A DNA stretch of 64,000 nt from an uncultured Thermoplasmata archaeon (GCA_963809035.1 CAWEHV010000002.1:1716701-1780700); one strand, 5' to 3'. Shown: positions 5,840-57,219, numbered from the stretch's first letter. Numbers and translations are program-made. The notes: a model not told the origin generated them from the sequence alone.

Positions 5840-5880
5840 CCATTTGTGATGTAACAACAGGCGAATCCGCTCGGGGCTAT
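5840..5880. repeat. Direct repeat copy 2 (att-like) immediately upstream of the integrase gene
   Basis: See copy 1. Downstream sequence diverges from the tRNA-like context. Confidence 0.6.
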
Positions 5881-5938
5881 CCACATTTCTATTGAAAATG
5901 GATATATCTACCACCCCTATTCCCGGTCCGGGCGAACG

Positions 5939-8230: not shown

Positions 8231-8379
8231 AACACTCTCGGCCGAACTGGTAGCCCCCTTCGCCGTGCGCAACCGGTCCCATTAGAACAACCCACTCAGC
8301 CAGCCCCGAGCGGTTTCGCCTCGATTACGGGGTGAATCCTGCTCCCTGCGTCCTAATCCCTCGTACGTCTGACTCGGCA

Positions 8380-8430
8380 TGTAGTCGAACCCCGGGGGGT
8401 TCGAATCCACCGATATCCCCCTCGTTCAAA
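8380..8430 (+). other. tRNA-like dispersed repeat (…CCCCGGGGGGTTCGAATCCACC…)
   Basis: T-arm-like motif. Shares 'ccccgggggttcgaatccac' with 8575-8605. Confidence 0.3.
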
Positions 8431-8560
8431 CTCATCCGGTAACCTGACGACATGTGGGACGAAACCTATGGGTCAGGGAGCCTCCCACCGAATGACGGAC
8501 TTGGCTGGCTCTTAGCCAGGGTTACTTCACCGCCACTCCGCTCTCCTCGCCCACCCTCCT

Positions 8561-8620
8561 GGATCGAAGTGGTCGGCGTCCACTCCCCCCGGGGGTTCGA
8601 ATCCACTTAGATCGCCACCC
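8561..8620 (+). other. tRNA-like dispersed repeat with conserved core 'GGCGTCCACTCCCCCCGGGGGTTCGAATCC' inside an 11-bp stem
   Basis: Stem 8562-8572/8603-8613 (one mismatch) encloses the core. The core recurs at 16919, 30225 and, partially, 32405. Confidence 0.35.
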
Positions 8621-8815
8621 TCAGCGCATTGATCGGTAGCCACATCTCAGACTAGGCATAGGCGAACCGGGAGGAGTGCTCACTCACAAGTGACGCGGAC
8701 CCTCCGGGCCCGTGATGCAATAGCGCCCGCGCAAACATTCCAAGCCGCGATTTGGAGATATCTCTGGAGTATATTTCACTCAGGCTTAAGCGCCTGGTCA
8801 CCCCTAGGATAATCG

Positions 8816-34114: not shown

Positions 34115-35004
34115 CTCGAGCCTCCGCGAAGGGCGTCGAGCTCAAGGGGGTCGACCGGTAGCCCTCGGCGCGCATAGCATTGAACGAGATCAGACAACAT
34201 CTTGGCATGGGGTCCATCCAAGAGAACTCCCGCCTCTCCAGTCGCTCCAAACGAATGGTTTCTGAACTCTCCGCTACCAACATAGGCCCATTTTCGGTCT
34301 TGGACGATAATTTTGTGATGAACCGAAGCCGCGATGGCGCCTCTCGCTCGCAGATTCTCCGCCGGAGGAGGCACAAAACGGAGATAGTCCCTTATCTCAA
34401 AATGAGTGGGGTCGTCCGGGTTGTTCCGCTTGTAAGAGTCCCACAGGTTCTGGAGAGCGTCAATACGCTCTTCGTACTGGCGCGGTCGAGTCGAATCCTC
34501 CCTCACGAGGATTCCTCTTCCCACAAGCGTGAACTCGATATGGCGAGCAAATGACTTTTCAAAATCGTCGCTGAAACGTGAGAGCGCGCGGGAATCGATG
34601 AACGGGGAGATGATTTGGAGCTGTTCCTGAGCGCCACCAACCAGTGCCGAGAATACGGCCTCGAGGTTCGCATGTTCTACCGCGGGATGCAGATTGCACG
34701 CTTTGTGGGCATCAGCCATGATGTCGATTGGATCATTGTGAATCACCGTTACCTTTCCCGCGTGTCTGGCCCAGTCGATGCGAGGCCGAGCAACGCGGTA
34801 GGCCCGACCCGGTGATTGAATGAGCTCCAGGTCGCCCTGTCGAACTAGGCGTTCGAGGGCCAGTTCAATCTCAGGCATCGGAATGTCGTCCAACTCGTCA
34901 ATAATCTCTCTGGGCCCCCCTACGCCTAGCCTTTGAAGGAGGGACGAAATCTGCAGGTCAATTTGGTCACTGCTGGTCATTCTGTTGAATCCAGTCGACC
35001 GCAA
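34111..35004 (-). CDS. Phospholipase D-family (HKD) nuclease, DrmC/DpdK-like
   Basis: Single HKD motif 'HHKIIVQD...GSGEFRN'. 4-nt overlap with the downstream gene and 38-nt overlap with the upstream gene. Confidence 0.7.
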   Translation of the reverse strand: MRSTGFNRMTSSDQIDLQISSLLQRLGVGGPREIIDELDDIPMPEIELALERLVRQGDLELIQSPGRAYRVARPRIDWARHAGKVTVIHNDPIDIMADAHKACNLHPAVEHANLEAVFSALVGGAQEQLQIISPFIDSRALSRFSDDFEKSFARHIEFTLVGRGILVREDSTRPRQYEERIDALQNLWDSYKRNNPDDPTHFEIRDYLRFVPPPAENLRARGAIAASVHHKIIVQDRKWAYVGSGEFRNHSFGATGEAGVLLDGPHAKMLSDLVQCYARRGLPVDPLELDALRGGSS

Positions 35005-36697
35005 TCGTTCTGTCTAAGAGGAGGTTCGGGGGCATCCAGCGGTTGTACTCCCGAGTCAAGAACCCGTGGCAAGACGTGTTGTCCGTCTTGATGCAGGCGA
35101 TGCAAGAGGAGTCGCAAAGCTGCGGACACTCCTGGATTCGTCGAATTCCTCGCACGAGCCAACTGGTCATCTGGCCGGAATGCTGAGAGAGCTGGGTGAT
35201 TCCACCGTCGGCCAGATCCCGTGTTTCGAAAAAGAGAATCGCGGCATCTGCCACGAGCATCCGGGAATCGAAATCCTCGAGGCCGATTTCTGTAACGAGT
35301 GAGGAGCGGAGGGCGTGCTCTATAGCATGAAGCAGCTTGGTCATTACGAACACGTTTTTCTCACCGTCAGCGGTCAGGAGATCCTGCAATCCCAACCTTG
35401 CAACGTTCTCCGACTCCGCCATGAACCGCCTCTCGTAATCCTGACCCTCCCCGTTACCGCCCGATAGAAGCCTCGCTAGCTTCGTCTTGTTGAGGCCGAT
35501 AATCAATCCACGACCTTCGGTGATCGTGGCAAAGGCACGGAATCGCTGGACCCCCGGCTGTACTTGGAAGAAGCGTGGGTAACGCTCGTCGTCAGGGACC
35601 GGCGGCTTGGGTCTGATTTCCGACCGGTACCCATAGACAGCTAGAAGAGATTGAATCTGTGGTACATCGAAAATTTCGGTTGCGCCAAGCCTACGGAGCC
35701 ATTTTGCGGCGCTAGGTTCAACCGTAGACATCGTGAACGAGTGCATCGTGTCTCTGTGCTGAGTCTTCAGACTCGCGAGTTGAACGTCTCGCCCCTGAGC
35801 GTCTCGGACAAATGTGACTGTCAGAGGTACCGCAATTTCTCCACTCGTAGCGGAGCGAGGAGCCATGATCGACGTCGTTTCTCCAGCGAGTAACTCTTCG
35901 TCAGAAATGTTGCAGATTGAGCAGAGTCGATTGACTCGTTGCGTGTTGATGTTCGACGGACAACTGGTCACCTCGCATCGCCAATGAGCATCACTCAGGT
36001 TCGCCCCGATGTCCAAGAACAGTCCATGGCCAGAGGTGCAGTGGATCCAGCCGGTGGCAAGTTTCCTTGAGAATGTGTTGTACGGCAGGAGCGGTTCGAT
36101 GTTTGCGCACCTTGGGCAGGAATAGACAACGTTCAGCTGGTGAAGCTCAGAATCTTCCTTGTGAAAAGTGCAACGGAGGCTTTCGGCGCCGTTTGGGTCG
36201 AGGTTGTAGTACCGATGGCATGAGTCACAAAGGAACAATGTAGGAAATATTGCACCCTGGACTTCGCTATTCTCATCTATCAACCGGAGGTCGACAGACT
36301 CTGGACCCATAACTCGTTCGTGGGCCCCTTCAACCCGTTGCCCGTCCGCCGAAACTTCGGTTCCCTTAGTCGCTCCTAGGCTGGCCAAGAACGCATTTGC
36401 GGCCACCTGGTCGGCCACCAGGCCGGCCGCCACATTCTGAACCGGCAAGATCCGCAACGATCGGTCACGTTCTTCTCGGCGCACGGCGCGTGCTATGCGC
36501 GCACGCGCCTCGCGATCGACCTTGCGTGCGTAGTCGACGCTGATTAGTCGCGCGATAGTCGTTTTAACAGTTTCGTATTCATCGCCAAGCGGCCGCCCGG
36601 TGAGTCGCACAGTTCGTAGTGTCGCATATTCGGTGCTCCAGGGTCTGTCAGGAAAGTACCGGAATAGGGCTTGGTACTTGCTTACCTTCCGCGTCAA
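34967..36697 (-). CDS. Cys-rich protein with C-terminal zinc-ribbon, DUF1998/DrmB-like by position and Cys pattern
   Basis: 576 aa. Multiple CxxC/CxxxC clusters, including C-terminal 'CPQLCDSSCIACIKTDNTSC'. Start overlaps the helicase stop (ATGA). Confidence 0.4.
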   Translation of the reverse strand: MTRKVSKYQALFRYFPDRPWSTEYATLRTVRLTGRPLGDEYETVKTTIARLISVDYARKVDREARARIARAVRREERDRSLRILPVQNVAAGLVADQVAANAFLASLGATKGTEVSADGQRVEGAHERVMGPESVDLRLIDENSEVQGAIFPTLFLCDSCHRYYNLDPNGAESLRCTFHKEDSELHQLNVVYSCPRCANIEPLLPYNTFSRKLATGWIHCTSGHGLFLDIGANLSDAHWRCEVTSCPSNINTQRVNRLCSICNISDEELLAGETTSIMAPRSATSGEIAVPLTVTFVRDAQGRDVQLASLKTQHRDTMHSFTMSTVEPSAAKWLRRLGATEIFDVPQIQSLLAVYGYRSEIRPKPPVPDDERYPRFFQVQPGVQRFRAFATITEGRGLIIGLNKTKLARLLSGGNGEGQDYERRFMAESENVARLGLQDLLTADGEKNVFVMTKLLHAIEHALRSSLVTEIGLEDFDSRMLVADAAILFFETRDLADGGITQLSQHSGQMTSWLVRGIRRIQECPQLCDSSCIACIKTDNTSCHGFLTREYNRWMPPNLLLDRTIAVDWIQQNDQQ

Positions 36698-38310
36698 GGT
36701 GGGCCGGTCTCCTCCACAGTATCATCGGCGGAATCATCTTCGATTACCGTCTCTTCGTGATGAAATTGCTGTAACTGGCCAGCCAAGGCGTCGACGGGCC
36801 GAACAGAAACGTCGCGCTCTTCAGAGTCCCGTAACGAGAGAAGAAGAAGCTGGTCGGCTGAGAGGATACCGCCGATGTAGTTCCCGGGACCTCCCATCGA
36901 GCTCCACGAGACAATGAGATGGGTGAGCTCATCAAATGCGAGATCTAGGTACTCCCGGTAATCCGGTCCTTCAGTACCGCTCAGGACTTCGGCGAGATCT
37001 CTGAGCACCTGCACCTTCAGAGCAGGGTTCGCCTCCAGTTTCTGGACCGCCTTGGGAGCGGTCATCATGTACCGGTCGTCGTAGGTACTGTGAGCGAATA
37101 AGACCACGCGAAGCACATTCGCGAATATCTGGCGAGCGGCGTATCGATTCGCGCGTCGCATGGGGCGCGGTTCGAAGTAGCCACGCAAATCGCTTAGTAT
37201 GTAGTGAAAGTTCGCGTAGAACTCAATATCACGAGGAAGATCAGGCCGGACGATTACGTGTGCATGTCCTGGCGCTCTTTCGCGTCGCCCAGTTCGCCCA
37301 ATTGTTTGAACGAATTCCGTGATTGATTCGGGGAGGCTCACCATCACGAGTTGGTTTAGGTCCTCGATATCGAGACCCAGGCTAATCACAACATTTGCCA
37401 CGAAACTCTGAAGTGAACCTTTCGATGCACGGGTGAAGTAGTCCACGAGTCTGTCATTGGGAGTATCGCCCGAGATGAACGGTATCGTGTCTCCGCCCCC
37501 GGAAGCACGTCCGGTAGCATCTCTATATTCCCTTACTAGGAGCCGACCCACATCCTTCCGCTGGACGTAGGTGAGGTTGATTCCGTACGGACGGCCTTCT
37601 CCAGTGTAACCCAACTTCGTTTCGAGCTGACGCTGGAACTTGTGATTCTTGAGAATTGCGTCTCTAACGTGCACCATCGTGCGGGTTGCCAAACGAGGAC
37701 TGCTAGTCCCGATCGGCATTGTGACTAGGCTCCTGTACCGCGTTCTACTGGGATCGACCTCGAAGCTCTTCGAGAATTCGACGTCTGCTGGACTCACAAT
37801 TAACTGATGATTCGGGTCGTCTAACCGCGTGAGCTCTGCCAGAAGCTCTGCTTCGTTTGCGATAGTAGCGGTCCCGACCTGGAATCCAAAAAGCTTGGCG
37901 ATTCGACCGCCGGGGGGATCATTAGGTGTCGTGGCACGTCGTTGATAGAGTTGAAGCAAGGCGATGAATGTACTAAGGTAGATTCCTGTCAGTCCATGTA
38001 GGCTGTGGACTTCATCGAAGGTCCAAAACTGAATCGGCCGTCTGGTCTCGGGGCCGAGGTTTTCAGAGTTACACTTGATGCAATGGGTAGCGTAGTTCCA
38101 CCAAACGGGGCTCATGGCCCCACATTCTCCGCAGGGGCGGACCGGGAAACCGAACAAGCGCATCCCAGGAGGTTCGGCACCCGACCGAGCCGTGGCTTCG
38201 AAGAAGAGTTTGTCGGGGGTGGCGATTAGAATCGCGGGTAAGAAATCCGCGGATTCCCCACTGCCATACATATAGTCAATTTTGTGCTCGCACTCAGACC
38301 TGATCTCCAC
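36694..38310 (-). pseudogene. SF2 (DExH) helicase, C-terminal portion (motifs II-VI) of a gene split by IS insertion; DrmA-like
   Basis: 'FWTFDEVHSL' (motif II DEVH) and 'QTIGRTGRRERAPGHAHVI' (motif VI). The N-terminal half, with Walker A, is encoded at 39982-41652 on the same strand on the other side of the IS. Confidence 0.65.
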
Positions 38311-38319
38311 GCCCGTTAG

Positions 38320-40020
38320 TTGCTAGCTTCCTTCCCGGACCCCTCCTTCTCCTCGAGGATCCGCACTGTTCGACCGGCAGGTTCATTAGGAACATACGCA
38401 CTACATAGTACGTATGGCGTTCCCTCGGGTCATCACCACGCGCGGCCGACACTATCTCCAGCAGGTCGAGTCGGTCTGGGACCCGAAGAAGAAGCGCTCC
38501 GTCACCCGGGTCCTCGCCCATCTCGGCCCCTGCGATGAGGGCGGCAAGCTCCTGCGCCCGCCTCGGGCCCGGGTGGAGAGCGTTCACTCCTCGTTTCCGG
38601 TCGGTCCTCTCGCCGTGCTGTATGCCGCGGCCCGTGAGCTCCGGGTGCGCGAGCATCTCCAGAGGGTTCTTCCGGGGGCTCCTACCGAGCTGATCCTGTG
38701 TCTCGCCCTGAACCAGGCCACGGCCCGCGTCCCGATCTGCCGCCTTCCCGAGTGGGTACGGGCGAGCCCGCTGCCTCGGTGGGAGAGCTTCCCGGCCGAG
38801 GAGCTAAGTCCTCGACACTTCGAGGAGGCACTCTCCTCGCTCTGTCACCTCACCCCGGAGAAGACGTGGGAGGACCGGGGCCTCCTGCTTCAGCAGGAAC
38901 TCACCGGGGCGTGGCGGGGCCGCTCTCGAGAGCCGGCCGGCGCCTACTACGACATCACGAAACAGGCGTACTACGGGAAGCATTGTCCCTACGGCCAGTT
39001 GGGCCACGACGAGCGGGGCACGGCCCCGGTCGTGGGGTTCGGGATGGCCGTGTCCCGGGAGCATCACCACCCGATCCTCTGTCGAGTCCTTCCCGGTGGA
39101 CAGAACGATTCGCTGAGCGTGGCTCCCACGCTGGAGCTGCTCCAGTCCCAGGGTCTGCGGCATCTGACGCTCGTGATGGACAAGGGGATGACGTCGAAGG
39201 CGAACGTGCTCCGAGCGCGCGAGGCGGGCTACCACGTCATCGGGTCGGTCAAGGGGTGGAGCGCCGAGTCGGTGGAGCATGCCTCTCGATGGCCCGGGGA
39301 GGAACTGGAGCGCTCGGAGTTCGTGGTCGGGACTTCCCATGGAGGGGCGGTGTATGCGCGGGCGTTCACGGCGCCGCTGCTGGGGCTACCGAAGGTGAGG
39401 ATCGCGGTGGTGGAGAATCTCTCCCGCAAGGCGGAGGATCGCCAAGCGCGGGACCTTCTGCTTCAGGAGTTGGAGGGACCGGTGGCGAAAGCTCGGTTGG
39501 AGGAGATCCGCTCGGAACTGGGCGAGGTCATCGTCACCGCCCGAGGAAGGAGAGGGTTCCGAGTCGACCCGAAGGCCGTGGAGCGGGAACGGGCGCTGGA
39601 CGGCCGCTTCCTGCTGTTCAGTACGGTCCTCTCGCTCGACGGGCGAGCGATGTACCGGGAGGTACTTCGCGAAGGATGCGGTGGAGAAGGCGTTCCGCAC
39701 GAGCAAGGGGGAACTGTCGCTGGGCCCGGTGAGGTATCGTCGGAAGGATCGGTTGGACGCCTACGCCACGGTGGTCTACGTGGCGTATTTGCTCTGGAGT
39801 TGGGCGGAGCGGAGGTTGCAGGAGAAATACCCCGAGCGGAGCCTGTCGGAGGCGATGCGCTCCCTCGAGAATCTGGCGTGGGTACGGTTTGGGACCGGGA
39901 AATCCGTCCGGGAGTGGGCCACTCGCCTCACCACCGAGCAGGAGAAGGTTCTCGCCGCCGTCAGCGCCGTACAGTATGTAGCTACATACTAACAGGCCGC
40001 GAGCTCAGGTCAGAGTTCTG
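38320..40020 (+). mobile_element. IS1634/IS4-superfamily (ISH-like) insertion sequence interrupting the helicase gene
   Basis: About 1.7-kb block. Carries a DDE transposase in two frames and separates the two halves of one helicase reading frame. Terminal repeats are only weakly recognisable (…tatgtag…). Confidence 0.6.
38414..39992 (+). CDS. IS1634/IS4-family DDE transposase, two frames (38414-39690 and 39681-39992; frameshift near 39670)
   Basis: 'VMDKGMTSKANVLRAREAGYHVIGSVKG' and C-terminal 'AFRTSKGELSLGPVRYRRKDRLDAYATVVYVAYLL' (cf. the 'E.FR..K..L..RP..H....R..AH' end of IS4/IS1634). Either a sequencing error, a programmed shift or a pseudogene. Confidence 0.65.
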
Positions 40021-41652
40021 ACAGACTCCGATAATCCTTTTCCCGAAGTTCTGTGCGAATACTGACTTGCTTCTGTGGCAGTTCGGGCAGACTTCGAACT
40101 GCACCATACGCTGTCCAACATTGGGTCGCGCAACGGCAGCGTAGAGGGGGTCCCGAGTTCCGATGAGGATTCCTCCCGTGATGTTGGACTTAGGGAATAC
40201 CTGCCTCGAGTTATGCAAGAGAATCGTCAGCCGGCGGTACATGTCCTCGTTAAGAATTCTAGTGGGAAACGCGAGCACCGCTCGATTTCCGGTCCATAGA
40301 TAATACAAAAGGGAATTTGCCATGAAAACGAGGGTCTTACCCGTCCCTGTGGGGGCCTTTACCAGGTGGCACGATCCAGCGACCTTGGCGTTCAACAAAA
40401 GTTGGACTTGCCTTTGAATGGCCAACCATTGAAACCAGTGCAAATGCGTGATTTCCGGGAATGAACGATGAATCGACTCGATGACCCCAGCAAGAGTCGC
40501 AATCCGGCCACTTGCCTTCAGTTTCATCAATTCCTCCTCTGAAAGGCAATCGAGGTGGGATGCCAGGCCCTCTTCATCTCCGAGTTCGCTTATTGGGGGT
40601 CCAGGCACGGGGCGGATCAGCACGCTGTCGTGGACGGCAGTCATGGCGGCAATGAGGAGCTTTGATGAACCGGGCGGAATCGTGACCACGCAATTCACAC
40701 CGCGGGGGGCGTTTTGCTGAATCTCAGTGAGGAACGCCCGTCGAGCCTCCCCCGCCTCCTCGGCGACGAGCCTCTGAGAATCGTCTTGCGTCGGGAAGGT
40801 AATATCTCGGTCGAATGCTATTCGAACTTCGGGGAAAACAATCGTCTTCTCTCCCCAGTACGTTGCGGCAGCTGCTTCCTTTTCGCTCACATGCGTGACG
40901 TTCGTAACATCAATCTCTAGGGTCGGGGGGTTTCCGTTCGATTCAGAACTCAGCCGGGCGGTCACTCGAACGGTCCTCGGAGGCGAGCGATGCAACAGAA
41001 CAGCCGCTCCGGTCGGGCGTGCTGCGTTCGACTCCACCTCTGCGTTCTGACGGCTCTCTTCTCTCAGGACTTCGCGGAACTCGGGAATCTCAATGGTGAA
41101 ATCGTTCGAGGTCCCTAAGTCAAGCTTTCCCTCCCAAGTGTAGTGACCTAGGGAGAGGCCGATTGGCCGGACGGCAGATCCAATTTCGCTGCGGAGATTT
41201 GCCCGTTTCAGACCGGGTCCCTCTGTGGACTCGACGTCAAAGAAATCACGAGGTATCGAAGGACGCTTAACCGATCTCCGCTCACGCAACCCGTGTTGAG
41301 TTTGCTCGGCATAGGAAACCCACCGTGGTACGGAGAAATCGATTCGGACTTGTACCGCACCGGGATTCGAGAATAGCGGAACGATCACGCGTATGTAGGG
41401 TGCGTACCGCCATGCTTGATTTCGCTTTCGAATCGAAACATCGTGCGGCACCAGGTAGTTCGCGAGGAACGAGTCCCGCACCTCGCGCAGTGGGCTGAAC
41501 GTGACCTGGTGTATCTGGGGAGCAGATATTTGATCGAGCGCGAGACTGTCAGGTCTGTTCGGATGAGAATCGGCAAGGAATCGACGAATCCGGTCATCCA
41601 GTGTCCCTGAGAGTGAGCTAGCTGCGACCATATGTGAGCCCTCCGTGACCAA
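39982..41652 (-). pseudogene. SF2 helicase, N-terminal portion (large N-terminal domain, Walker A 'APTGTGKT', zinc finger 'CPNCH') of the IS-split DrmA-like gene
   Basis: Motif I near the C-terminal end of this ORF. Reading frame runs into IS sequence and stops at 39982. Confidence 0.6.
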
Positions 41653-43904: not shown

Positions 43905-45335
43905 CTATATCACGAAGTCGCGGACGTCGATGACTCTGAACTTCGGTCCTGCGTCCCCAAGGCTGGCTTCGATCACAAGCCGAGCCAGGTGTTCCCTGCA
44001 GTCTCCCTGCATGCGAAGCACATCCATGCGAGTCGCCGAAGCGTCGGGAGGAATGCAATGGAATGAGAGATGGGTCGACTCTTGAATCTCACCGGTGACG
44101 GCAACACCTGCTGCCGCCGCTGCCGTCTTCACTGCTCGTCGGAGAAAATCGGTCAGGACTCCATCTTCCAGGCCTTTTGGTACACGAATGTCGAAGCCCT
44201 GTTCGGGCCCGTCCCCGGCAAACGACAGGATAATCGGAATCGGGTCGGCGGTTCGGCTTTCCGAAAGAACCCTGGCAAGTTCCGTTGCCTGGCGGTGAGA
44301 AGCTAACGCTGCCGTTGCAGACTTGGCAGCCTCTCCCATTGATTCGTGCGCCGCCCTCTTCTTTTCGTAAGAGGAAATCATCTCTTCTCTGGCGGCCCGA
44401 TCTATGCCGGCACTGATCACCGACTTTATCGACTCTGGAACACGCAGTGCTCCGCGCTCCATCGCATCTAGGAAAACCAGTTCGTCTCTCGCGGCAAGAT
44501 AGGCCGCCGCCGCAGATTTGTGAAACTCGGATTCCTCCCAAGCACCGACGTTTCCGATGGCCTCGAGCTCGGCAATCGAAGAGACGTGAAGTCCTTGCGG
44601 CCTCAAAATCTCATTTGCCCACTCGACCAGGTCCGTCCGCGCGACCCGGAGTTGTTCCTCGAGTGGGCGACTCCCGCCAATCCGGCCAGAAGGTCGCGAC
44701 CCCGATTCGATTCTTCGAAGCGATGATGCAGCCCGGCTGACGACTTGCATCGCTGCTTTTGCAGGATCGTCCGCATATGTCTGCAGGTCGTGCAGAACTG
44801 TGTCGTGCGCTTCCTGGGCGCCCTTCCGCAGCCGCTCGGCCTCATCCTTTTCCCGTCCGAGTCGCTCGACCTCCCTCGTCAGAATCTCGGCCCTTGACTG
44901 TAGTCGCGCTTTTTCCTGTTCCACCTGGAGGCTCTGTGCTTGATAGGCCAGCTCAAGCTCGCGCGCGCGTTTTTCCAGTTGATTCTCAATCCACGCTTGA
45001 TCACGCGGTGGCTCCCGTTCGGCTACAGCAGCAACTGACCGAGGTGGGACGGCAGTCAGGTGCCATTGAAGGTACTGCCCCCTTGCCGATGCGATACGAC
45101 CCCTGGCCTTCTCAAGGTATTCTTCCCATTGAGGCCGTGAAAGGCCGGTGAGAAGGAGCCTCCCTTTCGCAATATCCTCGATATCGACTCGAGCATGTTC
45201 CGATTTCGCTTTGGGTAGCGTCCCAAGATACGAATTCAATAGCCCTTTGAATCCCTGAACAGCGGTCGAAAGGTCGCCCCCTTTTACCTCGATTTCTGCC
45301 AGGAAAGAGGAAGCTTGCGCCGTCATGCACCCCAC
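43905..45335 (-). CDS. 476-aa coiled-coil-rich hypothetical protein
   Basis: Central region 'ENQLEKRARELELAYQAQSLQVEQEKARLQSRAEILTREVERLGREKDEAERLRK' is a strong heptad pattern. Confidence 0.45.
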   Translation of the reverse strand: MGCMTAQASSFLAEIEVKGGDLSTAVQGFKGLLNSYLGTLPKAKSEHARVDIEDIAKGRLLLTGLSRPQWEEYLEKARGRIASARGQYLQWHLTAVPPRSVAAVAEREPPRDQAWIENQLEKRARELELAYQAQSLQVEQEKARLQSRAEILTREVERLGREKDEAERLRKGAQEAHDTVLHDLQTYADDPAKAAMQVVSRAASSLRRIESGSRPSGRIGGSRPLEEQLRVARTDLVEWANEILRPQGLHVSSIAELEAIGNVGAWEESEFHKSAAAAYLAARDELVFLDAMERGALRVPESIKSVISAGIDRAAREEMISSYEKKRAAHESMGEAAKSATAALASHRQATELARVLSESRTADPIPIILSFAGDGPEQGFDIRVPKGLEDGVLTDFLRRAVKTAAAAAGVAVTGEIQESTHLSFHCIPPDASATRMDVLRMQGDCREHLARLVIEASLGDAGPKFRVIDVRDFVI

Positions 45336-45465
45336 GCATCAGCTCTCTCCCTCATAAATGTGAGCAGCTCCGGAACTCTCAGGGCTTGCCCATGCCTAGT
45401 TGTTATCAGTGGTTTCGTTCCTCCCACGTCGCATCGCTCGTTCCCCTCTTCGCGAGGATCGATCG

Positions 45466-45669
45466 ATGCAGGCAGCCGGCATCCGGAATCCGCCCGCCGA
45501 ACGCGACCCCACGCCGACAGACGCCAACCATGGAGCCCCCCGCCTCCGCACCGTCACGGGAAACCGTTTCCCGCGCAAGTGCTCATGCGGGTGCGGCTGC
45601 GAAACCCGCCAAGACCGAATGACTCTCTACTTTGCCCATTTCACGCGGAGTCAATCGTGCTCTGCATAG
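45466..45669 (+). CDS. Small protein (67 aa) with conserved N-terminus '...HGAPRLRTVTGNRFPRKCSCGCG', truncated paralog of 49010-49741
   Basis: ~100-nt block about 85% identical to 49025-49135. Differences fall at third codon positions of this + frame (gga/ggc, cgt/cgc, ccg/cct, tca/tcg), which is what coding selection would produce. Confidence 0.45.
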   Translation: MQAAGIRNPPAERDPTPTDANHGAPRLRTVTGNRFPRKCSCGCGCETRQDRMTLYFAHFTRSQSCSA

Positions 45670-45839
45670 CCCGTGCTCGGCGCGAATCTACAGCCTCGGT
45701 AGGCATCCCCCTTCGAGTTCGCGAGCGAACAGGGAATCGAGTCCTGTTAAGGAAACGATTCCCGGCAGGAGATAGCTCGTAGAGTCGCCGACGCGAACTC
45801 GATGGACCAAGAGACGCGGATCCGAAGCGCAGTTCGGAG

Positions 45840-47645
45840 TCAGGTTCCTCGAAGCCATGTCAAAGCCGCTCCAATCTCGTTGGGCTCGCACTCGCGAACT
45901 GCGGGTATTCGCGACAGCTGTGATTTGGGGTGGTCGTGGTCTCCATCAGTCACGATAAGGAGTCTGTCGGCGGCTATTCCCTCCCGCGCAAGGTCGTCGA
46001 GAGCCTTTCCGAGTTCGGTTCCCCCTGACGTTTGTAAGTGCTTCGACATCGGTGAACCCCGGAGATCGCCACCCGGGACGAGACCAGCGTTGAAACGGTA
46101 GATATGAACGAATGAATCCGAGACCGCACTTCCCAAAGCGACCTGGACCTCAGGTTTCTCGTACGCGTCACCCATGCTACTCGAAACATCAAGCAGCAGG
46201 ACCAAGCAGAGACCTTGCAGTGGTGCCTTCGCTTTGGAGACTGCATCCAGAAGGTTGCTTCTCACTAGGTCCAAAGCCGGACGGTTTCCCGGATGAACTC
46301 CCTCAATCAGCACGGATTGAGGAGGGAGATTGGGTCGGACCCCTGAGTCGTCGTAATTGAGTACTAAGACTCCTCCCGAGTCCGGAGTGCCACCGACATA
46401 CTTCGTGCAGACTTCCTCCACGTGCTCCTTCGTCAGCCGTGCTCGTTGCTTGAACTCGACTACTGCGACCGTGCTTGCCGGCACGCTGGGGTCCTCTGAA
46501 CAGATTCTCAGATCCGGCTGAATGTCGTAAGGAGTCCCTGGGGCCGGCTTGGTTCTGATTCGTACCGCAACGCAGGCGTTCGGATACTGACGCGAACGCA
46601 AAGAGGCGACGATGCCCGGAAGGTAGCCATCGATCGCAACTCGGTGGCCATTGACGATGGGGATCGGACCAAGAAATGCGAGCTCATTCAGCACCACGAT
46701 TGTCGACCAGACCTCGTAGGTCTGCCACCTATGTTTCCAAAAAGGTAGCTCCAGAACGTCGAGTGTCTTGTTGATCCACTCAACCTTGTCGTTGCGGGCA
46801 GTGTGAATTTTCGAGGCAATCTCGTTGTCAAAGAATGTGACTGCCTCGGTCCTCGGGCTAACAGCCACCTCAGAGGCGAAGAGAAAAACGAGGGCCCAAC
46901 CCGGAACCAGGTCTGTCAGCATTTGGGCAGCATCCTCAAGCGACGCGAAATGTGTATCCGGTGGCGCCGTCGTAACCTTCAATTCTGGAACAGTTCGGAG
47001 CTCGTTCCTCACTTCGAGCTCATTTGCGTACTCGTCGATTATCCACTGGAATGCGCGCTTGGTCCATGACAAGACTCTCCCGAAGTCATCGGCACCGCTA
47101 GATGGAACCGGTAACCGAAGACGTTGTCCACGACGGTATCCGAGGCTGGGTCCGGGAGTGTTTTCTGGGAGTCCTTCCCTGATAATCCGTTCGAGGTCGA
47201 AGAACTTGTGAAGGATCTGGGGAGTCAACAGTTTGACGTCCACAGGAGAGAAGGCAGCTTTGACCTGGTTGAGCTGTTTGCGAAATGACTCGAGATTAAC
47301 AGGAGTCGTTTTCCCGGTCGGGTCAAGCTGAATCGTAAGTGTCTCGGTAGTCCTTGTCGCGGAAATAGCTGCGAGGTAGCTCCATATTTCTTCAAACATC
47401 TGACTGAAAGGCTGGACAACAAGGAGAATCCTCTCGAGCAAGTCCTCAGCAGTCATCTTCGATGAACGAAGAAACTCGTCCAACCCGTTTTCCGGGCAGC
47501 CGACAGCACGACAGAGGTCTCTCTCCAGAGCAACATCCCGACCCCGATCCGGCTTGAGATCCAGCCCTCGATTTCGCAGGGCCCCGTAGAGCTCAGCCGC
47601 CGTCTTCAAGACGGGGGGAGAATCCCCAGAAACTCTTCGACTCAT
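45840..47645 (-). CDS. 601-aa protein with C-terminal von Willebrand factor A (vWA) domain
   Basis: MIDAS-type 'LLLDVSSSM', 'GGTELGKAL', 'LIVTDGDHD'. N-terminal ~450 aa unassigned. Confidence 0.65.
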   Translation of the reverse strand: MSRRVSGDSPPVLKTAAELYGALRNRGLDLKPDRGRDVALERDLCRAVGCPENGLDEFLRSSKMTAEDLLERILLVVQPFSQMFEEIWSYLAAISATRTTETLTIQLDPTGKTTPVNLESFRKQLNQVKAAFSPVDVKLLTPQILHKFFDLERIIREGLPENTPGPSLGYRRGQRLRLPVPSSGADDFGRVLSWTKRAFQWIIDEYANELEVRNELRTVPELKVTTAPPDTHFASLEDAAQMLTDLVPGWALVFLFASEVAVSPRTEAVTFFDNEIASKIHTARNDKVEWINKTLDVLELPFWKHRWQTYEVWSTIVVLNELAFLGPIPIVNGHRVAIDGYLPGIVASLRSRQYPNACVAVRIRTKPAPGTPYDIQPDLRICSEDPSVPASTVAVVEFKQRARLTKEHVEEVCTKYVGGTPDSGGVLVLNYDDSGVRPNLPPQSVLIEGVHPGNRPALDLVRSNLLDAVSKAKAPLQGLCLVLLLDVSSSMGDAYEKPEVQVALGSAVSDSFVHIYRFNAGLVPGGDLRGSPMSKHLQTSGGTELGKALDDLAREGIAADRLLIVTDGDHDHPKSQLSRIPAVRECEPNEIGAALTWLRGT

Positions 47646-47946
47646 GATTCAACCAAAATGACATGATGATTCTAAACCTCTTCCAAATTGCTAGCTGCGA
47701 CAACCGTACTCACTTGCCACCCCGGGGTTCCTGACTCGGCTTTCGCCTGTCCCTCCCCTCACGAGGGAAATGTGACCTAACCCCCGTCACAAACCGGTCC
47801 TTGTCAGACCTCCCATCATGGTATGAGACCGCGGGAACCCCCGTCGCTTTGCAGCCTATAGGGGGAACCTTCCCGCATGTACGACCTTTATCGTGAGGGG
47901 AGCGATTCCCCACCCATGATCGACCTAGGCCGATCCCGCCCCATCG

Positions 47947-48960
47947 ATGGCCGACACTAGCCCGAGCTCCGACCCCCTTTACGTCGGCTGGATGACAGGT
48001 TACATGCACGCAGAGTGCGCCCACCTCTTCTTCCACAATGGCGCGATCTCTAAGGAGACCGACCGGCATCGACTTCTCCGAGCGATCTTCACGTACCAAA
48101 CCCTGGTCGAAACCCTCCAGCCTAGCGACCAAGCCGAGATCTCGAAGGGCCTCAAGACCATGGTCGCGGAGGTAGCGGAGGCGAAGCTCAACATCGGAAC
48201 GGTCCAAGAAGAGGACTTCGACCGCTGGCACGATTCGGTCATGGGAACGCTGCGTGCGAAGATTCCCTCGGCGTACCACGCAGCCGGATTTGCGAGCACG
48301 GTCTCAGACCTGTGCACCCCCCCGAAGACGGCAGGGTGGATTCGTCACGCGTTGAATCACACACTGACCCAGTACTACCTCCCGAAGATCGGGCGGGCCA
48401 TTTCCAACGATGCGCACGATGTGATCGCAAGTGACTGCGTCCGTTTGGCGGGTTGGGTTGACGAAGACCCGGTCGTGGGCCCAGAAAGGGTCGGGAAAGC
48501 GCTGAGGGCCCAGGTACGGGAGCAGTGGACAGACCTCGTCCTGGGCCAGAAGTCCGCCCCCGATCTTCTGAGCGGCGGAAGCCAGGCCTGGCTCTGGATT
48601 CTCGGGGCCCTCCTCGCAATCGGAATCGGCCTCGGCATCGCGGCCATAGTCGCCCTGCCATTCTTCGTCGTTCTATGGATCGCGAAGGTGAATCTCGCCA
48701 ACATCACGCTGAGTTCAACGAACAATGTACTTTCAACCGTGCAGACCTTCTTGGGAATCCTGACCGCTGTCGGGGTAACATTGGGGTTCGTCCTCAAGAA
48801 GGCCTATCAAGGATTCGAAGCGGCCTTCTCGTGGATTGGAGTACGGTTGGCCGGGCTTCGGTCGCTCGAACGGAACCAGGGCCCCGGCAAAGCGCGGGCT
48901 GTGAAGACTCAGCAACCTGAGGTTCCCGCGGAACCCAGTCTTCCCGTTGCCCCGACGTAG
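47947..48960 (+). CDS. Hypothetical protein with two C-terminal TM helices
   Basis: 337-aa ORF. 'AWLWILGALLAIGIGLGIAAIVALPFFVVLWIA' and 'FLGILTAVGVTLGFVL' helices. Confidence 0.45.
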   Translation: MADTSPSSDPLYVGWMTGYMHAECAHLFFHNGAISKETDRHRLLRAIFTYQTLVETLQPSDQAEISKGLKTMVAEVAEAKLNIGTVQEEDFDRWHDSVMGTLRAKIPSAYHAAGFASTVSDLCTPPKTAGWIRHALNHTLTQYYLPKIGRAISNDAHDVIASDCVRLAGWVDEDPVVGPERVGKALRAQVREQWTDLVLGQKSAPDLLSGGSQAWLWILGALLAIGIGLGIAAIVALPFFVVLWIAKVNLANITLSSTNNVLSTVQTFLGILTAVGVTLGFVLKKAYQGFEAAFSWIGVRLAGLRSLERNQGPGKARAVKTQQPEVPAEPSLPVAPT

Positions 48961-49009
48961 CACCTCCTGGTGGGCCTCGCCCGTCCCTTCCTTTGGCGAG
49001 GGACGTGCG

Positions 49010-49741
49010 ATGCAGAGCATCCACCACTCAACGCCAGAGACCCGAACGCCGACCGAAGCCACACACGGAGCCCCTCGCCTCCGCACCGTCACGGGCAACC
49101 GCTTCCCTTGCAAGTGCTCGTGCGGGTGCGGCCAGTCGATCCCGCGCGACCCGGAGATCCGCATCGTGGGGGACTTCGGCGCGCCACGCCCGTATCCAGC
49201 CTACCTGCGCGAGCACTCGCTCGACTACGGGAGCTATCGCGGTCGGTGGCAGTCGCGCCGGGAGACGCTGGCCGCGGTCCCAGGGTTCGTTCCCGCAACT
49301 GCCCATTTGGCCGATCCGGACGAGGAGAGGACCCGAAGCCCGCCATTCGGGGACGACCCTGCCCACACCGAGGCGGACGCGTCCCCGAGCCCCGAGGCAG
49401 GGCGTCCTTGGGCCTCCGGCCAGCTTGTTTTCAATGCGGGCCAATTCGAGTCTGCGCGGAGCGGGTTCGCCGACTACGCGATAGACGACGAGACGGCTGC
49501 CCAGCTCCGCACCCGCGTGAACCGGGTCATCCTCGAGGACCTCGAACAGAAGGTTCTGGCCCTGAGGGCCCTCCACGCGAAGCTCCGGGACCTGGAGGCG
49601 GGGCCCTCGTTCGGGGAAGTAGTGGCGCGTTCGCGGCCGGGCCGACCCAAACCCCGCGAGGTCGCATGTTCGAGATCCGCCTGCGCATCCTGGACCTGCG
49701 GGAGCGGGAGAGCGATCTCCCGTCCTTCATCGGGATCGTAG
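49010..49741 (+). CDS. Hypothetical protein with N-terminal 'HGAPRLRTVTGNRFPCKCSCGCG' module and coiled-coil region; may be fused by frameshift to the HicB-like ORF that follows
   Basis: Full-length paralog of 45466-45669. Ends in a frame overlapping 49666-49920. Confidence 0.35.
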   Translation: MQSIHHSTPETRTPTEATHGAPRLRTVTGNRFPCKCSCGCGQSIPRDPEIRIVGDFGAPRPYPAYLREHSLDYGSYRGRWQSRRETLAAVPGFVPATAHLADPDEERTRSPPFGDDPAHTEADASPSPEAGRPWASGQLVFNAGQFESARSGFADYAIDDETAAQLRTRVNRVILEDLEQKVLALRALHAKLRDLEAGPSFGEVVARSRPGRPKPREVACSRSACASWTCGSGRAISRPSSGS

Positions 49742-49920
49742 AGGGGTTTCCCCAGGTCCTGGTGCACGCGACGACAGTCGAGCAGGGGGAGAGGGACCTG
49801 ACGAACGCGCTGATCGAGCACCTGAGGCGGCTGCAGGATCACGAGACAACTCGGATCGACTGGGATGAGTTCCCGACGGTGCGAGTCGTTCGGTTGAGAC
49901 TAACCCCTCTCGCGGGATAG
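49666..49920 (+). CDS. HicB-like / UPF0150-fold small protein (84 aa)
   Basis: 'FEIRLRILD...SFIGIVEGFPQVLVHATTVEQGERDLTNALIEHL' follows the HicB N-domain pattern (beta-hairpin, 'PG/PQ' turn, 'T.GET/QGE..EAL'). Confidence 0.4.
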   Translation: MFEIRLRILDLRERESDLPSFIGIVEGFPQVLVHATTVEQGERDLTNALIEHLRRLQDHETTRIDWDEFPTVRVVRLRLTPLAG

Positions 49921-49936
49921 GCGTTCCCGCAAGGTG

Positions 49937-52900
49937 TTACTCCTCGCCTGCCCAATACTCGAGGAACCCTTCCACAAGGACCTCCTTCGTGGCGGCTCGG
50001 GACCCGGGAATTCCCGCCTCTTTCCACCTCTCCCTGAGTTGCGGGATGGTTTCTCCTGCGAGCTTCTGCTTCATGAGCGTTAACTCGACCGGCGAGCGCT
50101 TCGGACTGATAACAGCCCCTTCAGACCACTTCTTCTCAAATTCAGCGAGTTCTCGTTCGAGTGCTCCAACGTACTCGTTCTTGGAGGTATCCGTCCGTGC
50201 CTGAAGGCGAAACTCGTGTCTCATCCTGCCAAGGACCCGGCGAAAACCTTCCCTCGCCCACTCTTGGGTCCCCGACCTGACTTGGTAGTAGGATTTGGCG
50301 GAGAGATCGTCTTGGCAACACTCGACGAGGAATCCCCAACCTCTTTCCGAAAATTCAGCCTGAGCGGGGATAACGAAGGTAACATCTCTCATCCAGCCGA
50401 CGAGCGCGGGACGCAGCTTCTCTGAGAGGTGTTCAATGAAGGTTGGGTTTGAGACGAGGTGATGCATGAGTTGTAGCTTTGCCTCGGCGGCCCTCGAATC
50501 ATTTCCGGTGGCGTTTACTGCGCTAACCGCTTGCACGAACAACTCAATTCCCTCGCCCTCCGCGAGGATGAGACGAACTTTTTCTCGAACATCTCTCTCA
50601 TTTTCAGTTCTGAGTCGCTTCAGGCGGTCAGCATCGCCAAAGACTCCCGCCTCTTCGAGCAGAGCAATCGCGCGGTCTACGGTCCCTCGGTCGGGCTGTG
50701 CCCCCGACACGTACTGATAACCGAGAAATCGCCCTTCCACCCCTTTGACAAATGTCGGGTCGAGTTGGGCCTGATGTTCCTCTGCGAGCTGCCAAGCGCG
50801 GGAGAGGTCCTCAGCACGCTCGAGGCATTCGATCGCACCCTTGAAGTTCTGGTCTTCGAGTTCGAGGGAAGCCAAGCGTTGTAACGCCAGTTCTTTGCCC
50901 CTCGCGTCTCGCGTGCCAATGACACGAGCAAGGAGCTCCTTTGTTGCAGGTCTCTCCCCATCATGAAGACGCAGGGCAACAACGGCTGAGAGCATATTCG
51001 GGTCCCGAGCGTAAACAAGGGGGTCAAGCTGGTCGGTCCAGGTCTTCAACCGGCTCCATGCGTAGGATGATGTGTAATCCCGGCGGAGCGGCCCGACGGC
51101 CAGTTGGAGCCGTGGCATCGCTCCGCTCAAGCCCTTGATAGCGGGCGAGAAGTTACCGAGCCGGGCAGAATCTTCGGCCTGTGCAATCTCTACGTTCGGA
51201 GAGCCCATATCGGTCGACTTCAAGTAACTTTGAGCGGCCTCACTCCAGAGTTGACTCGCTCCAATAAGGGCTGCCTCGGCAAAGGCATCGGCTGCCCGAC
51301 GATACTGACTTGGAGCTTGATCCTGTCCCGCGCCGGAGTCCGCCAACGCCTTCCACTGCTTCCCTGCTTCTTCCCAGTTGGATGCTTTAGTAGCCCCCTC
51401 AGCTAGCACGGTGCGCGCTGCGACGTACTGTCGGCCGAGCAGCCGTTGCAGTCGGTTCCTTTCAATAACCCGCACAACGATGTCGTGTTTACCTTCCTTC
51501 AGCAGGAAGTCACACAGCTTGACCATCGGTGCCACATCGTCCCTGGCGGTTTTCCAGAGCACCGTCTCGTGCAACTCGACCAAATCATCGATGAGTCGGA
51601 GCTCCTGAAGGTGCTCGGATAATCGTCCCTTGGAGCCGTCGATCGTCGGAACGTCGGGGGACTGGATCAGGAATTTGAGATAGGCCGTGGCAGCGGCCTT
51701 TGCAGTGCGGCCCTCAGAGCACATTAAATCAGAGTAAAGCAACCATCCTTCATGTTCGAGAGAACGAGAACTAGACAGTGACAGGGTCCGGCGAACTTCG
51801 CTCCATTGTTCACCGTGAACATAGGCCTGGGCCGCCTTCATCCGGAAGACGCCGCCGAACTGGGACCAATTGTCCCCGGCCTGCTTCCAGGCGATTTGAG
51901 CGCGGGTGCCCTCACCCTTTCGATAAGCGGTGCCAGCCTCATCCTCCAGTTGTTCAGCCCTAACCTCGAGCAAGAGGTGTTGGGCCTCAAGATGGTGAGG
52001 TGCCCTATCCAAGCAGTCAAGCGCATACGCGAGCATTCGAGCATCCCGCTCCTCGCGATACAAGTCCAGATATTTTCTGGCATCCGCTACCCAGTTTCGA
52101 TCATCCTCGGCGGCAAGCGCAGGGTCGCCGCTGAGTCCCCGGATGTTGTCTCGATGAGTGCAATCGACCTCCTTCATCCTTGCCCATATCTTCTGGACGG
52201 CCTCCGCCTCGTCGAAAACGAAAAGATACTTTGTTGAACGAGTGACGGCGATGTAAAGCCTGTTCAGATGGTAAAGGACAGGCATCCGGGATCGCAATCC
52301 GTCCTCCGGTTCGGTGTCGCGGATCGTCTGCTCGGCGAATTCAGAGAAAATCGGCCGCGAGCCGATCTTGTAGAGGATCACGCGTTCAAATTCGAGGCCC
52401 TTGATATCAGAAATTGTGTGTAGACGGACGGAAGCGAGGACCTTGTCCAAGGAGAGGTCAACTTCGCGCCGTGCGACGAGTCTTGCGATTCGCGCCTCAC
52501 CATGAATCCCGTTGAGAACTTCCAACAGGTGACGGTCGCTCGAAAGGAACTTCAGTATGTCTTCCTCATCTTCGTCCCAGATGAGGAGCGCCGTCCCGGG
52601 TCGAGGATTACGTAGGAGTTGTATGAGGGCAACATCGTCTAGTTCGCCCGATACTTCGTAGCATTCGGGTTCGCGGCCCCAAGGCTCTCTCGCCCGCTGC
52701 TCGACGACGGCTTCCCGAGCATAGTGCCTTCGGCGTCTCTGTACCGCGTTTGCAAGATTCACTATCGGTTGCGGGGTCCTCTGATTGAGTTCGAGATCGG
52801 TCTGTCTCAGTGGGTCACCTTTGTAGAACAAAGCCTTGATATGAGTCCAGTTGAAACCAGTCGGGTTGATTGTCTGTTGGGGGTCGCCTGCGAGTGCCAC

Positions 52901-54830: not shown

Positions 54831-55015
54831 CTGTGTAATGTTTCATAGGACATTACACTTAGGGGGCATATCCTATGTTCTTACCCCCAAGTTTCCAAAC
54901 CCTTCCCCCTCTAAGTTTCCCTACGCGCGTGAATCCGGGTGAGGCTCCATGTAGGGGGCATGTCATACATGCCCCATGCGAAAGCCCGGGCAAACCAAGG
55001 TCTGGCTCACGCGAG
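54831..55015 (+). repeat. Left terminal inverted repeat, including a 9-bp-stem hairpin (GGGGCATGT/ACATGCCCC)
   Basis: Compared directly with the right end. The hairpin is kept by compensatory substitutions. Confidence 0.7.
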
Positions 55016-55182
55016 ATCAGGTTTCCCAACTCGCCGGTCGCCACGGGCTCCGCTTCTGCGTAGTGCGTCCGCGCAAGGCTGGAGCGGGCGAGGGATACGC
55101 GACGATCGTACGCACCTACGACACCAAGGGACAACCGATCCCGAGCGCTGAATCCACAGGACGCGGTCGGCCAGATGGCTAG
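54976..55182 (+). CDS. 68-aa protein encoded inside the left repeat arm ('MRKPGQTKVWLTR...VVRPRKAGAGEGYATIVRTY...')
   Basis: A homologous, frame-disrupted copy exists in the right arm on the opposite strand. Nucleotides diverge but residues are conserved. Confidence 0.35.
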   Translation: MRKPGQTKVWLTRDQVSQLAGRHGLRFCVVRPRKAGAGEGYATIVRTYDTKGQPIPSAESTGRGRPDG

Positions 55183-56564: not shown

Positions 56565-57034
56565 TTCGATAACGGAAATGCAGGCGTGTTAGATAACTTC
56601 TGTCTTCGAACGTACCGAGCCGAATACGCCCACAGGCCCGAACCCCACTCGGTTCGGCTGTTACGCCTCCACAAGCTCTTTCGATTTCACCCCTGTCTTT
56701 CGGCCCTGGTAGATCCGGACTTGTCGAGCGCGTGCCTTCGCCGCCCATACTCCTGACTCTTGGTTTCAGGTGGGGCTTTGCACTGCAAGTACGCGACATG
56801 GGTCCATTCCTCCTCGTCCCCCTGATGGCGGAAGATCCCGAGCTTGCCATTGAACAAGAGGAACCGGAAGGACTCGTCCTCGGTCACCTCCATGCTGCGA
56901 TTGTCCCTTGGATTAGCGTGCCGTCGTCGCGGTAGGTGCGTACGAATGTACCGAATCCTTCCCCGGCACCGGCGCCCTTCGGCCGCACCACGCGCTACCG
57001 GAAGTAGTAACGCGAGACGGCGAGATGGACCTCG

Positions 57035-57219
57035 CTCCGCGTGAGCCAGACCTTGGTTTGCCCGGGCTTTCGCATGGGGATGAATAATCATCCCCCTACA
57101 TAGAGCCTCACCCGGATTCACGCGCGTAGGGAAACTTAGAGGGGGAAGGGTTTGGAAACTTGGGGGTAAGAACATAGGATACTCCCCCTAAGTGTAATGT
57201 CCTATGAGAGATTACACAG
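57035..57219 (-). repeat. Right terminal inverted repeat, including an 8-bp-stem hairpin (GGGGATGA/TCATCCCC)
   Basis: Reverse complement aligns to 54831-55015. Confidence 0.7.

Follow-up and report, generated by a model that had tools for sequence, protein, structure and literature searches.

A stranded 5′ gene relic and a cargo block precede an intact Cys-motif gene in a Thermoplasmata archaeon

We analyzed a stretch of 64,000 nucleotides (nt) from an uncultured Thermoplasmata archaeon (GCA_963809035.1 CAWEHV010000002.1:1716701-1780700), referred to here as the window, in which two similar gene starts on the plus strand bracket a block carrying a gene for a protein with a vWA-like domain and a gene for a predicted membrane protein. 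The downstream start, copy B, heads an intact member of a multi-copy family of Cys-motif proteins. The upstream start, copy A, is a relic, the displaced 5′ end of an older allele of the family gene. This gene accumulates new genes at its front, and we propose that the repeat in the window probably originated by an insertion that replaced the 5′ end of a family gene. The comparisons reported here draw on 52 related loci from other Thermoplasmata species, searched by tblastn, by a covariance model of the leader that precedes the family gene and by an nhmmer profile.

One intact gene and one truncated gene start

A sequence-only reading of the window had reported a direct repeat of about 85% identity at 45490-45600 and 49025-49135. 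The repeat is real, and its coordinates need trimming to 45511-45597 and 49046-49132, a conserved block of 87 nt with 76 identical positions (87%) at a spacing of 3535. This was the sole strong direct repeat reported by a repeat search of positions 44500-50500. Over the longer coordinates ungapped identity drops to 82/111 (74%), as there is no relation in the first 21 nt (6/21) and no match in the last 3. A chance origin of the repeat is excluded: the runner-up placement of the 87-mer in the whole window, on both strands, matches at 46 of 87 positions, and two sub-patterns of 20-21 nt are found at both repeat sites only, where 0.00-0.01 occurrences are expected. From left to right, the window carries the relic with its leader (45431-45597), a spacer of 243 nt, the vWA gene, a possible further leader, the membrane-protein gene and the intact module (Table 1).

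Table 1. Features of the bracketed segment and of the module to its right; R1 is the covariance model of the leader and ORF stands for open reading frame
Feature	Coordinates	Strand	Basis or remark
Copy A leader hairpin	45431..45469	+	5′ arm 45431-45444, loop 45445-45455, 3′ arm 45456-45469
Family-gene relic (copy A), first 44 codons, "alpha" N-terminal type	45466..45597	+	Homology to all family members stops at 45597
Unrelated read-through tail of the relic ORF	45598..45669	+	CETRQDRMTLYFAHFTRSQSCSA, then stop; left junction of the block at 45597/45598
Cargo gene 1, 601 aa, C-terminal vWA-like domain	45840..47645	−	DxSxS motif; Pfam Y4bO_3rd and weak VWA_CoxE
Possible third, decayed leader (tentative)	47743-47775	+	R1 19.7 bits, E ~0.004 (rough calibration), model positions 13-45
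Cargo gene 2, 337 aa, hydrophobic membrane-type segments in the C-terminal third	47947..48960	+	Translation
Copy B leader hairpin	48974..49013	+	5′ arm 48974-48987, loop 48988-48999, 3′ arm 49000-49013 including the ATG
Intact family gene (copy B), 243 aa	49010..49741	+	427 homologues; alignments
Partner gene, 84 aa, HicB/UPF0150-like	49666-49920	+	Directly 3′ of the family gene in at least 37/52 loci

The differences between the two copies fall at wobble positions of the plus frame, as the same reading had claimed. Counting from the two start codons (ATG 45466 and ATG 49010), codon position 3 holds 9 of the 11 differences, and the binomial probability that one given codon position would collect 9 or more of 11 is 0.0014. 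A codon-level alignment, in which the differences are not evenly spread over codon positions, gave a Nei-Gojobori ratio of nonsynonymous to synonymous substitution (dN/dS) of 0.13 over 29 codons and of 0.045 over the 23-codon core, HGAPRLRTVTGNRFP(R/C)KCSCGCG. One antisense frame shares these wobble positions and comes close, with a dN/dS of 0.22 and 4 amino acid differences versus 3 in the plus frame over 10 changed codons. Therefore, the periodicity shows coding DNA and does not pick the strand; we assign the repeat to the plus strand because the homologues keep the plus frame. It could be argued from this antisense frame, and from the leader part of the repeat, which is a structured non-coding element with covariation, that the repeat is non-coding or regulatory, or that its gene lies antisense, and that the coding pattern of the plus strand is incidental. 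We consider this hardly credible, since the plus frame comprises ~210 conserved codons in >400 homologues and is followed by a conserved downstream partner gene, whereas Rfam has no match for the repeat region and the antisense ORFs predicted over the copies (45396-45578 and 48733-49164) lack homologue, family or Pfam support, the second of them overlapping the end of the membrane-protein gene. These ORFs are spurious, as had been supposed.

Copy B heads a real gene, a full-length member of its family. A search for further members matched 427 proteins, and every one with a source name comes from metagenome-assembled genomes of Thermoplasmata, which marks the window as archaeal. The family had been described as one of small Cys-motif proteins; its members are instead ~210 aa long, occur in multiple copies per genome and align end to end. 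They share an N-terminal block, RLRTVTGNRFPRKCxCGCG, a second block, IPRDPEIRYVVDFGAPRPYPAYLREHSPD, and a conserved C-terminal region. Copy B has the N-terminal block, the IPRDPEIRYVVDFG...HSPD block and the C-terminal GRPWASGQLVFNAGQFESARSGFADY...helix, and is 63-85% identical to 50 family members over full length; copy A has the N-terminal block alone (aa 1-44). Among 1.84 billion cluster representatives, a profile search found the family in only 200 clusters. Searches of Pfam, NCBIfam, PADLOC, PHROGs and PDB sequences gave no meaningful match for the family protein, whether to HicA or to any other family. An AlphaFold2 model built from 51 sequences has a predicted local distance difference test (pLDDT) score of 58, with the C-terminal helix alone confident. 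A viral origin of the module is unsupported, as IMG/VR holds no relative.

The conserved part of copy B stops near 49645. Its last 31 codons are read-through, overlapping the start of the HicB-like partner gene by 76 nt, because the usual stop has been lost (CCG GCC TGA in homologues, CCG GGC CGA in the window). Relatives of the partner gene occupy the same place directly after the family gene in at least 37 of the 52 loci from other Thermoplasmata species. The partner protein matches Pfam UPF0150 with an E value of 0.017, under the curated cut-off (27.3 bits); its model, at a pLDDT of 60 (low confidence), has a beta3-alpha-beta2 topology, and the top Foldseek matches in the PDB are to the HicB N-terminal domain (probability ~0.8, E 0.5). 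None of the window's other neighboring genes recurs in the 52 related loci.

Some side observations touch this module. Two public assemblies of the same population (L001 and L002) carry a T at position 49490, where the window has a G. The T creates a TAG at the near-invariant Glu161 codon of copy B and leaves a 160-aa product (P0007). Other differences between the window and these assemblies adjoin GTAC motifs (39661, 48373-48376 and 57831) or lie in a G run (56537), and the differences look like systematic base-calling or polishing differences. A public contig of 380 kb (ENA ERZ25039509 contig_61878) is 99.97% identical to window positions 39010-59492. ARAGORN called a tRNA-Glu(CTC) at 49879-49954, where the HicB-like gene ends; the call is probably false, because Rfam finds no tRNA in the 64-kb window.

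The ORF of copy A (45466-45669, 67 aa) matches the family over 44 codons and then continues with 23 unrelated residues. Its DNA is 89.6% identical to the full-length gene of locus L056 over 45434-45597, the match ends exactly at 45597 in L056-L059, and no DNA match of any locus passes about 45619. Among 5.8 billion proteins the sole match to the 23-aa tail is an identical protein from the same genome (P0121), and a search with the 67-aa product returned the identical self protein and seven short proteins, each with a different truncation point and tail. Compared with three alpha-type relatives, eight changes are specific to copy A. Two of them break the stem of its leader (45459 and 45463). 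The other six, a small number, are coding changes, of which codon position 1 has three, position 2 one and position 3 two. No HicB-like partner gene lies beside copy A, and in the closest locus, L004, the counterpart of copy A has ATA instead of ATG and an in-frame stop.

The sequence-only reading had taken the 67-aa ORF, too, for a real gene. That both copies head functional genes, and that the 67-aa product is selected, for example as a stand-alone zinc-binding N-domain, seems to us quite improbable. Copy A does keep a ribosome-binding site, its ATG and a 23-codon core without damaging change; that core block is undamaged in 12 of 21 upstream fragments of other loci, the tail adds Cys and His residues, and a gene caller annotated the ORF as a gene. 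Against this, the tail is conserved nowhere, the homology ends inside the Cys motif and before the near-invariant D47, F56 and H69, fragment ends vary by locus, and many fragments are frameshifted, stopped or without a start. The changes of copy A's own, moreover, weaken the leader and are not wobble-biased. The wobble bias between copy A and copy B is thus that of divergence between two once-functional alleles and not of present selection on the 67-aa product.

Alpha-type genes from other genomes match copy A at 83-90% identity (87% over 164-169 nt for L058-L060), and copy B matches it at 87% in the conserved block. Outside the core the two copies differ at 12 of 36 leader positions and in an indel-rich stretch of the first 15 codons, and here copy A is closer to foreign full-length genes than to copy B. 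We take this as a sign that one of the two ends is foreign in origin. The two copies are therefore not each other's closest relatives, as a recent tandem duplication in place would have made them. Since they are 13% diverged and copy A is nearer to the genes of other genomes, they were brought together and not recently duplicated where they stand. Of the suggestion that recombination between paralogs had inserted or duplicated a ~3.6-kb segment, the part that holds is that of foreign cargo (~3.4 kb) between diverged gene starts; a recent duplication in place does not.

Hairpin leaders, relic arrays and mobile elements at the family gene

Upstream of the 87-nt block, a weaker similarity between the two copies continues to exactly 36 nt before each ATG (45430 and 48974), which is where DNA similarity among all copies begins sharply. 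The segment forms a 14-bp hairpin, GCAT-CGCNCGTYCC / 11-12-nt loop / GGRACGNGCG-ATGC, whose 3′ arm contains a GAGG ribosome-binding site and the start codon. Copy B shows both marks of the module, the 14-bp hairpin leader ending at the ATG and the HicB-like gene immediately downstream. A covariance model built from the leaders of family loci (R1) scored the copy A leader at 55.7 bits (E 6e-13), with two non-standard pairs marked, and the copy B leader at 56.5 bits (E 4e-13); the fold energies are −20.2 kcal/mol for copy A, −23.8 for copy B and −27.1 for an intact leader. In an alignment of 29 loci, 91.8% of stem cells are paired and six pairs have changed on both sides. The pairing was matched by 0 of 500 shuffles, and no slid register equals the true one. 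A structured RNA and a palindromic DNA site would account for this covariation equally well. Rfam matches neither the window nor the segment 45300-50100 and has nothing like the leader. The putative leader between the two cargo genes has a weak fold (−14 kcal/mol) and was missed by the longer nhmmer profile.

Two further observations concern the leader itself. In L050 (2847-2903), a family-gene leader has its loop inverted relative to all others, scoring 60.2 bits with R1 on the minus strand versus 51.3. In L006 (7212-7700), L015 (4205-4707) and L019 (6889-7392), at far upstream array ends, the same hairpin leader precedes a different gene, for a winged-helix-like protein of ~150 aa with a weak HVO_A0261_N match, which in L019 forms an in-frame fusion behind the first 5-6 family codons.

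Arrangements like that of the window recur. In ~30 of the 52 related loci, the intact gene is preceded on its own strand by one to four extra copies of the leader. The ~60 extra leaders or 5′ fragments found in total are all upstream, and downstream there are none except the copies that belong to the next module. They hold 0 to ~190 family codons; the left boundary of every copy is the base of the hairpin, and the right boundary varies continuously, with a skew to the first ~80 codons. Decay is evident among them. The ATG is lost in ~16 of 45 upstream copies versus 2 of ~45 intact genes, several upstream copies are frameshifted or carry stops, and mismatches at conserved residues amount to 12.7% in upstream copies versus 2.9% in intact genes (Fisher p 5e-9). 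In 12 of the 16 arrays with at least two relics, the most distal relic scores below its most proximal counterpart (counted by hand; p = 0.038 in a one-sided sign test), which fits new DNA entering beside the intact gene.

The cargo between relics consists of one or two genes, often for small membrane proteins on the minus strand, with a stop codon abutting the breakpoint; a Nudix hydrolase, PKD/Kelch proteins and an IS630-like transposase are also found. Two loci with alpha-type relics carry cargo unlike that of the window, namely Nudix and membrane-protein genes in L004 and two membrane-protein genes in L006. Some cassettes share a junction and have been duplicated as units: two cassettes of L019 are 78.8% identical over 358 nt, including 150 nt past the breakpoint, and cassettes of L019 and L050 are 70% identical over 1.29 kb.

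Recognizable mobile elements have also entered this gene, and in these other genomes insertion with replacement of the 5′ end does happen. A serine-recombinase element of ~2.9 kb is present in three copies in one Thermoplasmata genome, MFD05580.bin.2.18 (L008 2086-4998, L018 7377-10290 and L052 7504-10350). At each, the relic ends at an 11-bp core, TGCGCCTGCGG, in codons 36-40, and a second copy of the core follows ~2.9 kb on. On the minus strand it carries a gene (L008 2131-4227) for a 699-aa large serine recombinase with Resolvase, Recombinase, Zn_ribbon_recom and HTH_17 domains. The element supplies its own hairpin leader and a divergent N-domain (KLRTVRGNPYPRRCACGC...) that reads in frame into the remainder of the family gene, and the fusion product with this substitute N-domain is a called protein of 265 aa (P0093). 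The elements of L008 and L018 are 99.4% identical and their left flanks differ; therefore, the same element entered two gene copies site-specifically. Homologous recombination through flanking family sequence as the source of this 99.4%-identical 3-kb segment is ruled out by the non-identical left flanks.

A group II intron lies exactly between the ATG and codon 2, at the foot of the leader hairpin, in L009 (7953-9997), L017 (~7393-9550) and L018 (~4925-7059), recognized by an RT/maturase with RVT_1 and GIIM domains and by Rfam matches to RF02003 (D1-D4) and RF00029 (domain V/VI) above gathering scores. The copies of these three loci that consist of a leader and MVRRRR alone are the 5′ exons of this intron. 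Between the three species involved, the intron shows 93-97% identity, but the family genes that flank it only 73-81%.

Origin of the window layout

The vWA protein has 14 matches among 5.8 billion proteins, the closest non-self ones 34-40% identical and from bacteria or metagenome contigs; those with a source name are bacterial (Chloroflexi and Flavipsychrobacter). Two relatives that we looked up, one from Chloroflexi and one on a metagenome contig, lie in defense-like neighborhoods. This pattern suggests that the vWA gene is a cross-domain transfer of single-gene cargo, and the rarity of the protein and the distance of its relatives are consistent with horizontally acquired cargo. For the membrane-protein gene, whose stop codon lies 14 nt before the copy B leader, we found no match in Pfam, NCBIfam, PADLOC or PHROG and no relative in any of the 52 loci. 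The idea that the two cargo genes form a conserved pair was rejected, since vWA homologues elsewhere stand alone in variable contexts.

As stated above, we favor an origin by insertion with 5′-end replacement. A block of ~3.4 kb would have been joined into a family gene at codon 44/45. It would have brought the genes for the vWA and the membrane protein and ended, on the right, in a fresh leader and 5′ coding end. The joint would fall within the last 12 nt of the repeats, TGCGGGTGCGGC, a stretch identical in both that encodes the CGCG motif, and the incoming 5′ end would have restored an intact reading frame. The old 5′ end would have been stranded upstream as copy A, reading into unrelated DNA and beginning to decay. 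The wobble-biased differences would then be inherited from the time when both 5′ ends headed functional genes in different lineages. The anatomy, the truncation, the signs of decay and the recurrence in related genomes are observed; the way in which the block was joined is inferred. We give somewhat less than an even chance to recombination between family copies, homology-anchored or illegitimate, with subsequent spread via the flanking repeats; a site-specific recombinase acting in trans, or since lost, is possible but rather unlikely.

Several observations weigh against this proposal or parts of it. No recombinase, transposase or integrase was found between copy A and copy B or in the scanned ORFs of the window; both cargo genes lack recombinase domains, and tblastn with the L008 recombinase gave no match in the window. 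Relative to the core at which the element of L008, L018 and L052 is inserted, the window breakpoint is shifted 7 nt rightward, and the breakpoints of relics form a continuum from 0 to ~190 codons, so that one site-specific mechanism cannot explain the general pattern. Copy B has no sharp mosaic boundary at codon 44, the nearest neighbors of its 5′ part and of the rest being similar. The 23-codon core of copy A is undamaged, and a recent event and selection on the peptide are on this point indistinguishable. Also, the window reverses the gradient of decay seen in other arrays, its distal relic being far better preserved than the putative middle leader.

The related loci themselves speak to both sides. 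The window's cargo is present in 0 of the 52, which we count in favor of an insertion, but no relative with an empty site that would prove the insertion was found. One candidate for an empty site, L056 on the P0001 contig, was rejected: the 480-aa minus-strand gene upstream of its intact alpha-type gene resembles window genes at 13.5-16.7 kb and not the 476-aa neighbor of copy A. A metagenome scan with that 476-aa neighbor protein yielded no relative.

The same end product would be left by the decay of a once-complete upstream paralogue, in which two full tandem modules had cargo between them and a deletion of the upstream gene's 3′ part and of its HicB-like partner left a stump of 44 codons with no insertion. 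Complete or almost complete copies are indeed seen on one strand, in tandem or separated by 10-20 kb, with three copies in L041 and pairs in L016/L048, L025/L035 and L022/L036, and long upstream remnants of 146-190 codons are present in L024, L029 and L041. Random deletion, however, would be expected to produce 3′ and 5′ remnants in roughly equal numbers, and the 5′ relics exceed the 3′ ones by about ten to one, with breakpoints strongly skewed to the first ~80 codons. In addition, no stray HicB-like remnant lies near copy A, and the serine-recombinase element shows a true insertion with 5′-end replacement at this very gene. We therefore hold paralogue decay to be unlikely and retain insertion with 5′-end replacement as the probable origin.

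Likeness to known systems and meaning for the family

The layout resembles several known systems in part. Some integrative elements enter a gene at its end and bring along a substitute for the end that they displace. Integrases of archaeal and bacterial elements that target tRNA genes leave partial tRNA copies behind. The tycheposons of Prochlorococcus are reportedly cargo islands built between partial tRNA repeats. As in these elements, a repeat of the end of the target gene brackets the insert, with one copy completing the gene and the other stranded, and repeated events build arrays of fragments with cargo, some of the cargo blocks lacking a recombinase. In contrast to them, the target here is the 5′ end of a protein gene with its structured leader and not a tRNA 3′ end, fragment lengths are continuous with no fixed att length, and the block in the window has no integrase.

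Large serine recombinases can integrate inside protein genes, as do the SPbeta and skin elements of Bacillus and phiC31-type integrases. The element of L008, L018 and L052 is of this class, inserted in codons 36-40 between 11-bp cores, and the window breakpoint falls in the same CxCxCGCG-coding stretch, 7 nt off. Classical elements split their gene until excision, whereas the L008-type element brings a leader and N-domain that keep the gene whole; the block in the window has no recombinase gene, and its joint is not at that core.

In Rhs and contact-dependent-inhibition loci, displaced C-terminal toxin tips lie downstream, each with its immunity gene. There, as here, truncated ends pile up beside an intact gene, displaced by a new end recombined via the conserved part; unlike there, it is N-terminal ends that accumulate, upstream, with unrelated cargo between them. 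With integron cassette arrays the family loci share cargo separated by direct hairpin repeats with stem covariation, on one side of a platform gene. They differ from integrons in having no IntI-type recombinase, repeats with variable coding lengths and cargo in either orientation: an integron is marked by an IntI tyrosine recombinase beside its array and by attC-type sites, and the ORFs scanned in the window contained no integrase domain. Finally, the module recalls HicAB pairs in the tight linkage of a small HicB/UPF0150-like gene to the gene before it, the pair being present in multiple copies per genome and in variable, defense-rich regions; the upstream partner is, however, a 210-aa Cys-motif protein and not a HicA-like toxin of ~60 aa, and the resemblance to HicB is below curated thresholds.

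Elsewhere in the window, a DISARM-like defense locus occupies 34111-41652 on the minus strand, with DrmB at 34967-36697 and a PLD-type gene at 34111-35004. Its drmA is split into 36694-38310, matching positions 501-962 of the DrmA profile, and 39982-41652, matching positions 307-503, because a 535-aa ORF on the plus strand (38414-40021), listed faintly as DDE_Tnp_1 in a precomputed table, intervenes; drmA thus looks disrupted by an insertion sequence. An inverted repeat of ~205 bp and 92% identity (~54831-55036 and 57018-57219), seen among secondary BLAST hits of L001 against the window, brackets ~2 kb and could represent the ends of an insertion element.

The signature found here is a familiar one of integration, at an unfamiliar place: the start of an uncharacterized multi-copy archaeal gene, with a hairpin around its start codon. 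Its recurrence in ~30 related loci points to a hotspot across Thermoplasmata at which defense-type and membrane-protein genes are gained and swapped. The comparison also yields a minimal serine-recombinase element of 2.9 kb that keeps its target gene whole through a substitute N-terminus, a group II intron homing to the hairpin and start codon, and a candidate regulatory RNA motif absent from Rfam. For annotation, it follows that most of the small Cys-motif ORFs called in front of these modules are relics and not genes. A bolder idea, which we regard as a long shot, is that the hairpin-led 5′ end is a dedicated gene-capture platform, at which cargo is added time and again immediately before the coding body, each cargo bringing a fresh leader and N-terminus and leaving a fossil start behind. 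If true, this would be an archaeal functional counterpart of integrons or tycheposons built on the start of a protein gene, and capture might rely on the Cys-motif protein or the hairpin instead of a classical integrase.

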